A stretch of 28,636 bases of DNA. Source: Parcubacteria group bacterium Gr01-1014_72. Its GTDB lineage: Bacteria > Patescibacteriota > Minisyncoccia > Phycocordibacterales > VMFH01. The stretch covers positions 1 to 28,636 of the forward strand of contig VMFH01000001.1 in NCBI GenBank assembly GCA_007375925.1, written 5' to 3'. The notes below the pieces were generated by a model. It searched no databases. It saw nothing but the letters and a program-made list of their open reading frames with translations, and was not told the origin of the DNA. Position 1 is the first letter of the stretch. Each line of letters opens with the position of its first letter. Below, piece after piece: positions 1 to 17,892 of this stretch. The position numbers and the translations under genes are program-made.

Positions 1-696
1 GATGCCGCGGTCGCTCGTGAGGTCAAAGGAGATGAAAGGAAACAAGGAGGAGAGGGGCGAGGAGTTCAACTTGGAGTGCACGAGGAGCTCGTCCTCCGCA
101 ATCGGCATGACGCTGCGAAATCCTCCCTCCTGCTGAAAGAGGGCGGGTTTCAGGTACACGAGTTTTGACTCAAGGATTGACTTCACCTCGGACTCAATCT
201 TGTCCAGCTCTCCGTCGGAGTCGGCGTAGATTGAGATGTAGAGACCGACGTCAAAGAGCTTCTCCTGCGCCTGCTGGAGATCGTCGCGCAGTTTCTCCAG
301 GTCCTGGTGCGCCGTATCAAGCATGGGGTCGCGCACGAGCCCCTTCTCCTCGCGGTACGCGATCTGGCTCTGAATCACCGCCACCTTTTTCTGGAACTGG
401 CGGAGCACCTTCGCGGTGTCAATCGGGTGAATGAAGATGGAGATGTCAAACACCTTATCAAGGTTGATGATGGGCGCGAACCACCCTTCCGAGAGGTAGC
501 GGGGGTACGAGATGACGAAGAAGGTGCGGACGATTTTTTCGCCGAGGTTGAGCTCCCGCGGCGTCACCTTGAGGGCGGAGGGCGCGATGATGTCGCGTAG
601 CTCCAGCACTCCCGCCTCGTAGATCTCCTGCGGGAGAACGGAGGCGATCTGCGGCGCCTTCTCTTTTTTCCCGAATAGGTTGCTTAAGAATCCCAT
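1..696 (-). CDS. virB4: VirB4/TraC-family T4SS-like ATPase, N-terminal part (runs off the left edge)
   Basis: Not in the ORF track because it is partial. Manual translation from ATG at 696 is open to position 1: MGFLSNLFGKKEKAPQIASVLPQEIYEAGVLELRDIIAPSALKV...SYPRYLSEGWFAPIINLD...RDPMLDTA...EKLFDVGLYI...SSLFPFISFDLTSDRGI, typical of CPR VirB4-like N-termini; follows prgI and TraC-like genes. Walker motifs lie outside the window. Confidence 0.75.
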   Translation of the reverse strand, partial: MGFLSNLFGKKEKAPQIASVLPQEIYEAGVLELRDIIAPSALKVTPRELNLGEKIVRTFFVISYPRYLSEGWFAPIINLDKVFDISIFIHPIDTAKVLRQFQKKVAVIQSQIAYREEKGLVRDPMLDTAHQDLEKLRDDLQQAQEKLFDVGLYISIYADSDGELDKIESEVKSILESKLVYLKPALFQQEGGFRSVMPIAEDELLVHSKLNSSPLSSLFPFISFDLTSDRGI

Positions 697-705
697 AGTG
701 TGTAT

Positions 706-823
706 CGATGCGAATCTACGAATTATGCGAATGCTACGAATAAGTCTGTTTCCCCATTCGTATAATTCGTATCCATTCGTATATTTGCATCGTGTACCTT
801 CATCATATTTGCATCGTGTACCT
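706..823. repeat. Imperfect inverted-repeat element A (empty form)
   Basis: Left arm 706-741 cgatgcgaatctacgaattatgcgaatgctacgaat; 14 nt spacer 742-755; right arm 756-792 attcgtataattcgtatccattcgtatatttgcatcg; 19 nt direct duplication atatttgcatcgtgtacct at 781-799 and 805-823. Confidence 0.9.
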
Positions 824-1469
824 AGGTTACTTGTATCGGCTTCTCCGTCTCTCCCGGGTTGAAGAGCTTGTAGAAGAGCTCCACGACCTCTTCGGTGCCG
901 AGCTGTGCAGTTCGGACGCCGCAGCGCTGGAGTCCCTGCATGACCACCGCGACGCGCTGCTGAAGCTGCGTCCGGTTTTCTTCAAACGCAAGCGTGCGCG
1001 CCTCGGGGGTCGCCCCGCCCCGCTTTCCGAGAGACGGAATCGCAATCGGTATCCCCGCGGCGGCTTTGATGAGGGTTGGTGCGTAGGGGACCACGACGAA
1101 GAATGTCTTCGTCATGATGCTCACCGTTTCGGTGAAGTGACGGATGAAGGCCATGTACTCGCGTATCTGGATTTTGAGGAGGTCGGCGGTCTGTTTCTTG
1201 TACCGATCCTCAAGGAGCGCGACGTAGGGGCGGATGTCAAGGCGGCGCGACTCCACAAAAATTTGTATTGAGAAATCAAGCGAATTGAGAAACGCCTGAA
1301 ACTGCGCAATGATGGCATTCTGCTCATCCTCCGACTTGAGCGCGAAGTTGAGGGACGATGCGAGCACCACGGCGCGCATCCCCGCGCCCCTCAGCATCAC
1401 AATGCCGTCGCGCACCTCCTCAATGGGCACGAAGTCCTGCGTTGCTTTTGCATTCTGTGGTGAAGTCAT
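822..1469 (-). CDS. TraC-like/T4SS-associated protein (215 aa)
   Basis: TQDFVPIEEVRDGIV...SSLNFALKSEDEQNAII..FQAFLNSLDFSIQI..SRRLDI..Y pattern of the family found between prgI and virB4 in CPR. Confidence 0.75.
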   Translation of the reverse strand: MTSPQNAKATQDFVPIEEVRDGIVMLRGAGMRAVVLASSLNFALKSEDEQNAIIAQFQAFLNSLDFSIQIFVESRRLDIRPYVALLEDRYKKQTADLLKIQIREYMAFIRHFTETVSIMTKTFFVVVPYAPTLIKAAAGIPIAIPSLGKRGGATPEARTLAFEENRTQLQQRVAVVMQGLQRCGVRTAQLGTEEVVELFYKLFNPGETEKPIQVT

Positions 1470-1473
1470 GTAG

Positions 1474-1510
1474 CGATGCGAATATACGAATTATGCGAAT
1501 GATACGAATA
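1474..1510. repeat. Inverted-repeat element B, left arm
   Basis: cgatgcgaatatacgaattatgcgaatgatacgaata; 35/37 identical to 706-742; complementary to 1980-2016 with one G-T pair and one small bulge. Confidence 0.9.
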
Positions 1511-1529
1511 GGCCCACCATCAAATTATA

Positions 1530-1952
1530 CTAGGTGTTAGCTTCTACACCAAACCGTTTATGAGCCGCCTTCTCAATTTGAATAATACGAATCGGTTTCA
1601 AGTACCGATTTCTGAAATTAACGAGCAGTGCAAGTTTTTTGTTGAGATGCTGAAGATAGCGCTGCGTCTGATGGAAATCTTCTTTAAGAATAAGAGGTTT
1701 CGCCTTAATTTCTAAAATAATCTTTTCCTCAATGAGAAAATCAATAATATTACCCATTTCACCCACCCTGTATTCCCGCACATAAGGAATTTTGCGCCCA
1801 ATCAAACCTTTTTCAATTTCATCACCGTACTGCTTTTCGCGCGCGAATCTACCGAGAGAATTATGAGCATCAAAACAGATACCTGTGATGATATAGGAAA
1901 TCTCGGGATAGATTATTTTACCAACGGGTTTATTCGTTTCATTCGCACTCAT
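1530..1952 (-). CDS. GxxExxY family protein (PD-(D/E)XK nuclease superfamily)
   Basis: LGRFAREKQY (GxxExxY motif), IIDFLIEEKIILEIK (PD-(D/E)XK-like), Q..RYL and LLVNF motifs. Start placed at the ATG at 1952 (MSANETNK); visibly more AT-rich than neighbouring genes. Confidence 0.9.
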   Translation of the reverse strand: MSANETNKPVGKIIYPEISYIITGICFDAHNSLGRFAREKQYGDEIEKGLIGRKIPYVREYRVGEMGNIIDFLIEEKIILEIKAKPLILKEDFHQTQRYLQHLNKKLALLVNFRNRYLKPIRIIQIEKAAHKRFGVEANT

Positions 1953-2016
1953 TCGTATATTTGCATCGTGTACCTTTATATTCGTATCATTCGCATTCAT
2001 TCGTATATTTGCATCG
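1932..2016. repeat. Inverted-repeat element B, tandemly duplicated right arm
   Basis: Copies at 1932-1968 and 1980-2016; 1950-1975 cattcgtatatttgcatcgtgtacct is identical (26 nt) to 774-799. Confidence 0.9.
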
Positions 2017-2020
2017 CGTA

Positions 2021-2464
2021 CTACTTCCCTCGCATTGTCTCTTCTGCCCCCAACCCCATGTGCTCCTTGATATCAAGACTCCATGTGAGGTCCTTGAGCT
2101 TGCTGTCGGAGAGCTTCGGAACGTAGGAGGTGTCCCACGCCGCCGGCGTATTCGCGGATTCGGCCCTCTCATGCGGTTTTCGCTCCCGCTTCTTCCAGAT
2201 ATAGAGGCGATTCCCCGTGATGTAGTGGAAGGCGGCCTCAAGCGTGAAGACGAAGGGCTTCCCGTTGAACTTGTAGAAGGCGAGCGCGAGCCCGAGCCCC
2301 GCGACGGGAACGATGAGGGGAATGGAGACGAACCACCACGGAATGAATTTGTACAGGACGAAGGAGAGCCCGGCGGCGCCGACGACGTAGAGGAACTGCT
2401 TCACGGTGAGCCGCCCGAATATCTGGTCTTCAATCTCTATGAATTGTGGGACTTGGAAACGCAT
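2021..2464 (-). CDS. prgI: PrgI-family membrane protein
   Basis: MRFQVPQFIEIEDQIFGRLTVKQF signature followed by two hydrophobic helices; start placed at ATG 2464. Confidence 0.85.
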   Translation of the reverse strand: MRFQVPQFIEIEDQIFGRLTVKQFLYVVGAAGLSFVLYKFIPWWFVSIPLIVPVAGLGLALAFYKFNGKPFVFTLEAAFHYITGNRLYIWKKRERKPHERAESANTPAAWDTSYVPKLSDSKLKDLTWSLDIKEHMGLGAEETMRGK

Positions 2465-2469
2465 AGCAA

Positions 2470-2630
2470 TGATACAAATATACAAATGACATCCGAATCT
2501 ACGAATACCTACAAATCCTCCTTTTTCTTATTCGTAGCCATTTGCAGATTTGTCTCTGATTTGTAGATTAGTATCATACATTTATTTGCAGCCATTCGCA
2601 GATTCGTACCCAATTCGTAGATTGGTATCA
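2470..2630. repeat. Inverted-repeat element C (diverged, empty form, duplicated right arm)
   Basis: Left arm 2470-2516 (47 nt, acRaat units), 13 nt spacer cctcctttttctt, right arms 2530-2576 and 2584-2630; the reverse complement of 2584-2630 aligns without gaps to the left arm. Confidence 0.8.
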
Positions 2631-2631
2631 T

Positions 2632-4056
2632 TTACACCGCCTCTCTGTATGGGTCCTGTTCGTAGCGTTTTGGAGGCGGTGGTGGAACAGTAATGCGGTT
2701 TGATGTCCCACGAACAATACCGGAGAGTTTTTCGGCAACGAGGTTTCCACTGGCAGTTTCAGTGGAGATTGTTCGTATTTCTTGCGGAGGCGCAGGCCTA
2801 AGCGTCTCCGCCGCCGGCCGAGGAGGACGCGGCGAAACCGGCGGCATGAGTGGGGCCTGCGGCGGCTCCTTCGGGCGACTTTCAAACCGCGCCGGAGGCG
2901 TGCCTATGGGCAGATTTGCGGGAGGTTGTGGTTTCGTAGGAACGTATAGCGCGGCAGGTAGGGGCGGTCGCGGAGGGACGGGGCTTGGCGCCAGTGTGTT
3001 CATTCGTGAGAGCGATGTTACGGGAGGGACCTCAATGTCGCGGAGTACCTCATCGCGCCGAAGCGCGCTCTCCTCGGGAGTCGGTACAGCTGGCCCGGCG
3101 CTCTCCTTCTCCACCATGATGCCCGCCTCCACTGCCGCGCGCTCTTCGTGGATTTCGTGCAGGGCATCACGTATCTCCCGAAATACTCCTTCATTGACCG
3201 CTTTTCCGATGAGCGTCGCTTTTTCCCTGCTTGTGCGCAGGCGTGTTTCAAGGTGGCCGATGAAATCGCCCGGGTGCGTGAGCCCCACCATGAGGAGTCC
3301 CGATTCACTGGCGACGGCGCCGATCTGGTCAATGTGGAGCCCAAATGTCTGCCCGATTTCCTGTAATTTCTGCGCGACATCCACAGAGGTGACGGCTTGC
3401 TTGACGCTCGCGGGCACTTTCGCGTACGCGACCTCAATGCGCTCCTTCGTGTAGCCCGTTCCCTTCGCGATATCAATGAGCTTCGCGATGACTGACCCCT
3501 CAAGAATCTCGGACGGTTTCGGTTTCGGCGACTCTGTCGTCGGACGAGACAGGGGCGGCAGAAGCGGCTCTGCCATCGGTCGAGGCGGAGGAAGCGGTGG
3601 ACGTGGTACTGAAATACCTTGCGGCACTCTCGGAGTGGGAGCTCCCGAGGGTGTGATAAGATTTTTCTGTTTGCTTGGAGTTAGCGTTCCCATGTTCGGA
3701 AATATGGCGGTGGGGCGAGGAGATGGTACTGGCAGAGTGCGGACTCCCACAGCAGCCGATGTCGTCACAGGCACATTTCCAGATGAACCGACAATATTTT
3801 TAATGAAGAGGTCAGCAATTTCTCCCGCCCGCGCCCTCTGCTCATCACCAAGCTCCTTCTCAAGAAGGGTAATTGTCTCTCCGCGGGTGGGCTGTTTACC
3901 CGCGAGCAAGTTTGATGCGAGCGAGTAGAGAGCGCCGATTTCATCAAGCGTCAGGTCAAACACGGCGCCGACATCGTCGCAGAGGGAGATGTAATCCTTG
4001 TCAGTTTTGCCCTTTACGGCAGCACGTATTTTTTTGAACTCGTCAAAGTAATTCAT
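2632..4056 (-). CDS. Proline-rich hypothetical protein with duplicated helical domain and C-terminal DPYRE motif (474 aa)
   Basis: Long ORF co-oriented in the operon; GLHIDQIG..G.THP.DF..L...L domain; ends QDPYREAV, a motif I recognise from Parcubacteria proteins. Confidence 0.8.
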   Translation of the reverse strand: MNYFDEFKKIRAAVKGKTDKDYISLCDDVGAVFDLTLDEIGALYSLASNLLAGKQPTRGETITLLEKELGDEQRARAGEIADLFIKNIVGSSGNVPVTTSAAVGVRTLPVPSPRPTAIFPNMGTLTPSKQKNLITPSGAPTPRVPQGISVPRPPLPPPRPMAEPLLPPLSRPTTESPKPKPSEILEGSVIAKLIDIAKGTGYTKERIEVAYAKVPASVKQAVTSVDVAQKLQEIGQTFGLHIDQIGAVASESGLLMVGLTHPGDFIGHLETRLRTSREKATLIGKAVNEGVFREIRDALHEIHEERAAVEAGIMVEKESAGPAVPTPEESALRRDEVLRDIEVPPVTSLSRMNTLAPSPVPPRPPLPAALYVPTKPQPPANLPIGTPPARFESRPKEPPQAPLMPPVSPRPPRPAAETLRPAPPQEIRTISTETASGNLVAEKLSGIVRGTSNRITVPPPPPKRYEQDPYREAV

Positions 4057-12072: not shown

Positions 12073-12147
12073 GGCCGTTCCGCTATCCGCCTCCGTCTCC
12101 GCCAGTTGGCGGATGACGGATGGCGGAGCGGAACGGCCTTTTTCTTT
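12073..12147 (+). terminator. Compound intrinsic terminator containing a tccgccagttggcgga core
   Basis: Outer stem ggccgttccgc/gcggaacggcc, nested tccgcc, tccgtc, tccgcc stems, followed by tttttcttt; lies between convergent genes. Confidence 0.85.
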
Positions 12148-17841: not shown

Positions 17842-17892
17842 AAAAACCGTCCCGCTCCGCCAGTTGGCGGATAGCGGGACGGTTTTTCTTTT
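17842..17892. terminator. Bidirectional intrinsic terminator containing a tccgccagttggcgga core
   Basis: aaaaaccgtcccgc/gcgggacggttttt stem with A- and T-tracts, between the convergent M23 and comM genes. Confidence 0.9.

Follow-up and report, generated by a model that had tools for sequence, protein, structure and literature searches.

The 28,636-nucleotide stretch of DNA analyzed here, referred to as the window (positions 1-28,636, on which all coordinates without a contig name are based), comes from Parcubacteria group bacterium Gr01-1014_72, a tiny groundwater bacterium, and begins with an operon in which two successive gene junctions contain the same inverted repeat arms. In one junction these arms enclose a gene for a GxxExxY nuclease and in the other only a short loop, which raises the question of what such a pair of full and empty copies represents and how it arose. 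The preliminary description of this locus had offered two answers, a transposase-free mobile cassette with empty copies resembling miniature inverted-repeat transposable elements (MITEs), or an intervening sequence that is processed out of the mRNA. The explanation to which we give somewhat better than even chances is a family of small palindromic mobile insertion elements of the rRNA intervening sequence type, with MITE-like empty copies. The elements are inserted DNA that was multiplied as whole units within the genome, and they are tied to the GxxExxY nuclease family. The same host junctions are empty, occupied by hairpins or filled with different cargos depending on the lineage, and the cargo decays in some lineages. 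The cassette is real and probably mobile on the evolutionary time scale, a reading supported by differences in occupancy and cargo between orthologous junctions, the foreign composition of the cargo, the identical loops of empty copies and the framing of GxxExxY genes by arms.

The first 9.4 kb of the window consist of a run of minus-strand genes that encode a VirB4/TraC-like C-terminal protein, a 215-aa protein, the GxxExxY protein, a prgI-like protein and larger proteins of unknown family. The element arms follow the same strand, and the features of the three successive junctions are as follows.

1-696, minus strand: C-terminal (ATPase) part of a split VirB4/TraC-like protein; weak TraC_F_IV match, orthologues start with MGxF.. 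right after the 215-aa gene
702-826, minus strand: copy A, a gene-less hairpin defined by its repeat arms
702-742, minus strand: B arm of copy A (3' arm in gene sense); four ATTCG[C/T] words, ends with ..ATCGATAC
743-754, minus strand: loop of copy A, 12-14 nt; identical to the loop of the empty copies C9:1085 and C9:2842
755-826, minus strand: A arm of copy A (755-803), its outer end partly duplicated in tandem (805-823), found by repeat comparison
822-1469, minus strand: host gene whose 215-aa product is a homologue of the VirB4 N-terminal part; present in 140 of 151 genomes of the order
1470-2023, minus strand: copy B, the same arms around the GxxExxY gene, defined by repeat arms and open reading frame (ORF)
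1470-1510, minus strand: outer B arm of copy B, ends with ..ATCGCTAC; the ATG of the 215-aa gene (1469) follows immediately, at distance 0
1530-1952, minus strand: cargo gene for the GxxExxY protein, 140 aa, PD-(D/E)XK by profile matches, GC 0.385
1931-1978, minus strand: inner A arm of copy B with the cargo start codon and the codons M-S-A-N-E-T-N-K, found by repeat comparison
1979-2023, minus strand: outer A arm of copy B, a tandem duplicate that pairs with 1473-1510
2021-2463, minus strand: prgI-like host gene, likely start ATG at 2463 as in its orthologues (MRFQ.PQFI..)
2464-2634, minus strand: third, diverged copy in the next spacer; 49-nt arms, 76% complementary

The left arms of copies A and B (706-742 and 1474-1510) differ at two of 37 positions, and a block of 26 nt is identical in their right arms (774-799 and 1950-1975). 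The arms of copy A are 12-14 nt apart. Both copies have a duplicated right end, which in copy A is an exact repeat (805-823 of 781-799) and in copy B repeats 1932-1979 at 79% (1980-2027), with the outer right arm 1979-2017 pairing with the left arm 1473-1510 at 95-100%. The coordinates of the preliminary description all held when the repeats were compared again, as did its observation that the first cargo codons (MSANETNK) are encoded by the arm, since the cargo ATG (1952-1950) and these codons lie within the inner A arm. The flanking genes fit tightly around the copies. The 215-aa gene ends in a TAG (822-824) that is directly adjacent to the duplicate of the copy A A arm, and the ATG of the virB4C gene (696-694) is found 5 nt past the end of the copy A B arm. 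Similarly, the TAG stop of prgI (2021-2023) overlaps the first base of the outer A arm of copy B, which also holds an in-frame upstream ATG at 2000. The third copy consists of a B-like arm (2468-2516), a loop with extra partial arms and an A-like arm (2584-2632), and the stop of gene 2632-4056 is located at its outer end. With full, empty and diverged copies in three successive junctions of one operon, the window provides a convenient test case.

The survey of the genome (G000; 570 kb in 77 contigs, about 80% complete) was performed with blastn-short and, as a second count, with a 20-nt arm core allowing up to three mismatches. Extending the arm-motif search proposed earlier to the genome in this way revealed the arm family at about 29 loci, while the core gave 39 matches in the whole genome compared to none for a reversed control; recurrence of the arms is therefore not due to chance. 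The arms are arrays of [A/G]CGAAT words spaced about 8 nt, and the element is asymmetric, with an A arm (5'), the loop or cargo and a B arm (3') in gene-sense order. The A arm starts with (G)TAC[A/G]CGATGCAAAT and ends with ..ACGAATG, an end that supplies the ATG; the B arm starts with CCCATTCGTATC and ends with ..ATTCG[C/T]ATCG[C/A]TAC. Almost every copy exhibits the same differences between the A arm and the complement of the B arm, resulting in a constant mismatch close to the stem base and a constant small internal loop. Stems of 31-44 base pairs with folding free energies (dG) of -26 to -41 kcal/mol are predicted. Nearly all copies are empty, their hairpins having loops of 8-20 nt and in many cases additional arms in tandem. 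Copy A shares its 14-nt loop with the two C9 copies listed above, and four more loop types occur at 2-4 loci each; from these identical loops it follows that empty copies were copied as whole units. Terminal inverted repeats and multiple dispersed copies are features shared with MITEs.

Among the 20 loci with both arms and readable neighbors, 17 are oriented in the sense of the neighboring genes (binomial p about 0.003, calculated by hand) and follow the order stop codon, A arm, loop or gene, B arm and next ATG. Across loci the A arm starts with bases that overlap or directly adjoin the stop codon of the upstream gene, and the distance from the end of the B arm to the next ATG is 0-8 nt in at least 13 loci. 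Occupied junctions include NusG/L11, SecD/SecF, GroES/GroEL and the methionyl-tRNA synthetase (MetRS) gene. The three antisense copies (one on C30 before MetRS, one on C32 and one on C59 in the GroES/GroEL junction) fill their junctions equally tightly. The sense bias and the predicted stems would also be expected of a host module acting on RNA, in which the hairpins serve as RNase III processing or insulating sites in polycistronic mRNA or rRNA, the small genes are passengers and little spread of DNA takes place. The hairpins themselves argue against such a module in two respects: the three antisense copies fit just as closely, and sense and antisense strands fold equally well (11/19, p 0.27), so that no strand-specific selection on RNA is visible. 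Nor was any strand asymmetry of G-U versus A-C pairs found in the hairpin copies.

Two other functions of the B arm were considered. A promoter reading was suggested by TATAAT-like words, but the two-hexamer scan found no site in the arms and its total of five was not above that of shuffles (2.9 +/- 1.7); because of these results and the equally tight antisense copies the promoter reading was rejected. Replacement of a ribosome-binding site by the B arm was likewise rejected: the genome does not use Shine-Dalgarno motifs, which are not enriched upstream of long ORFs (27/259, or 10% of starts, compared to a 17% background), so that their absence at the arms carries no information. Leaderless or short-leader mRNAs are suggested by a TATAAT-like hexamer that precedes the ATG by 6-7 nt in several orthologues of the 215-aa gene.

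The genome harbors further small repeats in the vicinity of the arms. The 16-nt GC-rich palindrome TCCGCCAG[C/T]TGGCGGA occurs 22 times with up to two mismatches (window positions 12098-12113 and 17856-17871, C32:5989, C55:8667, C64:1952, C75:1044 and others). It is usually found at the tip of another hairpin and seven times between two words of an ACGAAT-type arm, and has the appearance of another, very small palindromic insert for which existing hairpins serve as landing sites. A common flank (..GGCGGA(T)GAAGATATAGT..) adjoins lone or terminal arms at C29:1016-1124, C29:3878-3987 and C30:12580-12600 and may be a further repeat or a preferred neighbor.

Few small proteins of unknown function are as common in the genomes of bacteria and archaea as GxxExxY proteins and the "four helix bundle / 23S IVS" proteins (IVS, intervening sequence). 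The ORF enclosed by copy B, which the preliminary description had recognized as GxxExxY, scored above the curated cut-offs of both relevant profiles, PF13366 (PDDEXK_3; E 2.3e-15, 57.4 bits versus 22) and TIGR04256 (53.8 bits versus 35). Residues D71, E81 and K83 are invariant in 36 homologues of its subfamily. The N-terminus M-x-T-N-x-T-N-K is likewise kept in the 36 homologues and is the translation of two ACGAAT arm words. The AlphaFold model (predicted local distance difference test score, pLDDT, 85) has the alpha-beta PD-(D/E)XK core, with Cas4, lambda exonuclease, tRNA-splicing endonucleases and a Holliday-junction resolvase as the best, although weak, structural matches (template modeling score about 0.45); a sequence search of solved structures with the cargo protein gave no meaningful match. 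The function of PF13366 was listed as "Unknown" in the 2012 survey of the PD-(D/E)XK superfamily (PMC3424549). Coding of the C-terminus KPIRIIRIDT by the B arm was ruled out, as the B arm of homologues lies past the stop codon and the motif is written in other letters.

The cargo is compositionally foreign to its host. Its GC content is 38.5% compared to 0.58 in the flanking genes, and both cargos of this genome (GC 0.38, GC at third codon positions (GC3) 0.38-0.46) differ from their host neighbors (GC 0.55-0.58, GC3 0.67-0.75). In 12 of 12 other cassettes checked the cargo was AT-richer than its flanks. This foreign composition is left unexplained by a host module acting on RNA.

The association between arms and nuclease extends beyond copy B. 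Both PF13366 genes of the genome are located inside such arms, the second on C24 between nusG and rplK. Its product belongs to another subfamily, with 50% identity to the window cargo and an insertion in one loop, and is framed by a second arm subfamily (AACACGACACGAAT..) with its own handful of empty copies. In this genome each of the two nuclease subfamilies is thus paired with an arm subfamily of its own. We also scanned 40 genomes of the same order for PF13366. Of these, 31 are without any such gene, and all eight stand-alone genes in seven related genomes lie between arrays of NC[G/T/A]AAT words in inverted orientation and have their ATG within an arm, in agreement with the earlier proposal that GxxExxY genes are enriched for flanking arms (2/2 in the genome, 8/8 stand-alone genes in relatives).

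The nearest homologues of the window protein (61-69% identity) occur at RtcB/Archease, PurQ/PurF and DUF2229-operon junctions, within closely similar arms of the same design. An exact block of 31 nt of the B arm is common to L068 and this genome, whose flanking proteins are only 64% identical. The arm-motif search of genomes of the candidate phyla radiation (CPR), also proposed in the preliminary description, detected an exact 22-nt A-arm core in seven further CPR genomes, including some labeled Jorgensen-, Azam- and Taylorbacteria, where by our estimate chance alone would give about 0.07 occurrences in the collection; each of the seven is an empty hairpin. Judged by these sequence comparisons, the arms are better conserved than their hosts.

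In some relatives a complete GxxExxY domain with CGCAGA-word arms is present in frame within housekeeping genes, twice in recG and once in lepA (L001/G024, L002/G038 and L003/G040). The recG insertions lie between helicase motifs II and III and the lepA insertion in the G domain, and the frames of 760-885 aa are open, with no stops. A CPR operon on metagenome contigs L124-L133 (with the GxxExxY protein P0052) carries a GxxExxY cassette in each of two successive junctions; inteins are also present in its flanking DUF2229 and BcrAD_BadFG genes, which brings several kinds of selfish elements together in one operon.

Conservation of the ACGAAT arm word with the nuclease subfamily across many CPR lineages and purifying selection on the catalytic residues would be in line with a domesticated nuclease and its repeat partner. 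According to this alternative, the arms are genome-wide binding or cleavage sites for a cell function, such as the handling of incoming single-stranded DNA or recombination control, and the repeats around the nuclease's own gene reflect this partnership and not self-mobilization. A precedent exists in the GIY-YIG nuclease Ssn, which cuts single-stranded DNA at its hairpin repeats; for 42% of homologues these repeats are found on either side of the gene (PMC11893778). Domestication is difficult to reconcile with the 31 relatives without a PF13366 gene, the apparently recent acquisition of the cargo and the use of the same cassette design by four-helix-bundle proteins. Since genes are also truncated (L068) or frameshifted (L101) in relatives where the arms persist, we consider this alternative improbable.

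To follow the occupancy of the window junctions, 94 distinct orthologous loci from genomes and metagenomes were compared, with the prgI to 215-aa gene spacer designated junction 1 and the 215-aa to virB4C gene spacer junction 2. Their lengths are usually -4 to 35 nt and were distributed as follows.

Up to 35 nt, often overlapping or TAAtATG: 63/86 for junction 1, 67/85 for junction 2
55-300 nt, many strongly folding: 14 for junction 1, 14 for junction 2
More than 300 nt, cargo-sized: 6 for junction 1, 3 for junction 2

Among the junctions of 55-300 nt, folding free energy z scores below -3 were obtained for four of 14 at junction 1 and 12 of 14 at junction 2. Cargo at junction 1 comprises GxxExxY type I (G000 and L019, truncated in L068 and frameshifted in L101), GxxExxY type II (L022 and L071) and a four-helix-bundle (PF05635-like) gene in L098. 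Junction 2 holds four-helix-bundle genes in L014 and L028 and a frameshifted, decayed one in L056, and elsewhere hairpins of several arm families; the arm words differ between loci. The spacer contents that the preliminary description had suggested tabulating, namely empty, hairpin, GxxExxY, four-helix-bundle and decayed, were all encountered. Its proposed comparison of prgI/virB4 spacers bore out the expected differences in occupancy and cargo across the 94 loci; no target duplication was found at the copies of this genome.

Occupancy of the two junctions is correlated, with both occupied in nine loci (counts 9, 7, 4 and 57; Fisher p 3e-5, a value overstated since the loci are related). In the window and in all five other loci with GxxExxY in junction 1 and a measurable junction 2, the latter contains a hairpin. 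In G099 this junction holds a cargo with no more than 35% identity to the window cargo, and it groups with the other subfamily; junction 1 was therefore colonized at least twice. No well-supported forks were present in the host tree. The absence of any hairpin from most orthologous junctions and the decay of cargo genes in some lineages are not expected of a host RNA module.

The division of the host protein is itself widespread. The VirB4-like ATPase is split into the 215-aa N-terminal ORF and a separate C-terminal ORF (window 1-1469 and the orthologous loci L014-L116), which are usually 1-4 nt apart or overlapping, and this arrangement is conserved across the order.

The 16S rRNA gene, about 3 kb long and located on C55 (L033; 2631-5620, minus strand) contains three inserts. 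The first is a group I intron (3499-3959). The second, of 416 nt, resides in the 5' domain at the tip of its first hairpin, at about positions 69-79 of the Rfam model, and carries a four-helix-bundle (PF05635) gene between its own inverted repeats. The third, of 126 nt, is an empty family-2 ACGAAT hairpin at the tip of another helix, in rRNA sense. The genome also encodes RNase III. These findings speak for processing at the RNA level, as RNase III cleaves rRNA intervening sequences of this design in Coxiella, among others (PMC4990558), and Correia elements in Neisseria mRNAs bind the enzyme (PMC2649163). In the in-frame recG and lepA cassettes of relatives, such cutting would destroy the mRNA. 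When these results are considered together with the strand symmetry, the vacant junctions and the foreign cargo, a host RNA module without appreciable DNA spread seems unlikely to us.

The mobile insertion element reading has to be weighed against several results that speak against it. No target-site duplication was detected, the flanks of the listed copies in this genome being free of direct repeats, and a nuclease gene is present in only two of the roughly 30 copies. Near-identical genomes showed no polymorphism of the sites. For the species of the window, the closest relative among genomes and metagenomes has 69% identity in the flanking protein. The GxxExxY protein P0052, present on 70 contigs, had the same neighbors on every contig read. 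In the only sequencing run with the window, which holds it solely as contigs, there was no empty-site joint at the copies; of five apparent joints, three were traced by their loop letters to other copies of the family and we infer the same for the remaining two. Part of the full-plus-empty arrangement in G000, G103 and G099 could simply be inherited. Finally, unrelated four-helix-bundle proteins fill the same kind of cassette, and because of this the cargo need not be the mobilizing enzyme. Of the transposase-free mobile cassette with MITE-like empty copies proposed earlier, inserted and copied DNA was supported; target duplication and movement at the strain level were not observed.

Missing target duplications and an orientation bias are typical of single-strand transposition, which brings in the sole IS200-type Y1 (HUH) transposase of the genome (Y1_Tnp; C55:10426-10854, 142 aa, E 3e-39). 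The hairpins could have been moved in trans by this enzyme acting on them in single-stranded form, with GxxExxY as a passenger, as in systems of repetitive extragenic palindromic (REP) sequences and REP-associated tyrosine transposases (RAYTs). The Y1 gene is, however, flanked by its own short GC-rich hairpins and not by ACGAAT arms, no TnpB was found in the genome, and the arms co-vary with the GxxExxY subfamily and not with the Y1 gene. Mobilization by the Y1 transposase is unlikely since its hairpins are unrelated to the arms, and we regard this REP/RAYT-like scheme as the least probable of those considered.

Returning to the family of palindromic insertion elements, the full form would consist of an A arm with the ATG and first codons, a GxxExxY gene of roughly 130 aa and a B arm, and the empty form of the same hairpin around a loop of 10-20 nt. 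Such an element would be selfish DNA that relies on transcription of the host operon, and its insertion may do little harm, as the hairpin would rejoin the upstream stop and the downstream start. The GxxExxY nuclease may recognize the word arrays of its own arms and promote copying or maintenance of the family, as RAYT does for REP and Ssn for its repeat NTS. RNase III may cleave the stem in rRNA transcripts and perhaps also in mRNA.

A more far-reaching version, in which arms and GxxExxY gene constitute a self-mobilizing minimal element of a new class whose nuclease would recognize ACGAAT arrays and drive copying into tight junctions, empty hairpins and rRNA helix tips, is conceivable from the sequence comparisons, and we consider it doubtful. 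It would explain the source of bacterial rRNA intervening sequences, whose origin has been a question since the 1990s. If the cassette is a mobile unit, it would provide a source of rRNA intervening sequences, add a transposase-free class to selfish DNA, account for many of the "extra domains" in CPR housekeeping proteins, and might yield small sequence- or structure-specific nucleases, as Ssn did. In the library searched, the titles and abstracts of the other papers naming GxxExxY, PDDEXK_3, PF13366 or TIGR04256 contain no treatment of repeat arms, and we found no paper describing hairpin-armed GxxExxY cassettes, which look like a little-described kind of selfish DNA.

Comparison with known systems reveals partial likeness to several of them. 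REP sequences, their REPIN arrangements and RAYTs share with the element a genome-specific hairpin repeat in intergenic DNA, a small enzyme gene bracketed by inverted repeats and the lack of target duplication. The enzyme enclosed here is not a Y1 HUH protein, the only Y1_Tnp gene being associated with different GC-rich hairpins, and the arms, at 37-45 nt, are of greater length and consist of repeated words. The NTS (dRS3) repeats and Ssn likewise combine a small nuclease gene, flanked on both sides by the hairpin repeat, with many copies near other genes (PMC11893778). They differ in the nuclease fold (GIY-YIG versus PD-(D/E)XK) and in that the gene described here is enclosed by a single hairpin, one arm of which supplies its start codon.

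The Correia repeat enclosed elements (CREE) of Neisseria (PMC2649163) and the Rickettsia palindromic elements (RPE) are also short inverted-repeat inserts next to or within genes, co-transcribed with them as hairpins that RNase III can bind, and the Rickettsia elements within genes are paralleled by the in-frame cassettes of recG and lepA in relatives. In contrast to both, the present element has neither a target-site duplication nor a known transposase family, and it possesses a full form with a nuclease gene. Comparison of the flanks of the copies also separates it from classical MITEs by the lack of target-site duplication; no DDE or TnpB gene is associated with the cassette and the cargo is a PD-(D/E)XK protein, so that a recognized transposase is missing. 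The differences in occupancy, which homing would produce at one site between close relatives, were observed between distant orthologous loci, with no variant in the one sequencing run that holds the window.

A close parallel in architecture is provided by the rRNA intervening sequences of Coxiella and Leptospira (S23p/PF05635), which are regarded as selfish, horizontally acquired and of unknown origin (PMC4990558). In these a small ORF, AT-richer than its host and sporadically distributed, lies in the loop of a long inverted-repeat stem (28 bp in Coxiella), and the window copies similarly combine terminal inverted repeats and a long stem with an optional small ORF. The window copies differ by their location between protein genes, a PD-(D/E)XK nuclease as cargo, arms made of 6-nt word arrays and dozens of empty copies. 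Their sister copy in the C55 16S rRNA gene does occupy an rRNA helix tip, and this hairpin and the four-helix-bundle cassette, at two helix tips of the same 16S rRNA gene, have the architecture of the intervening sequences of Coxiella and Leptospira.

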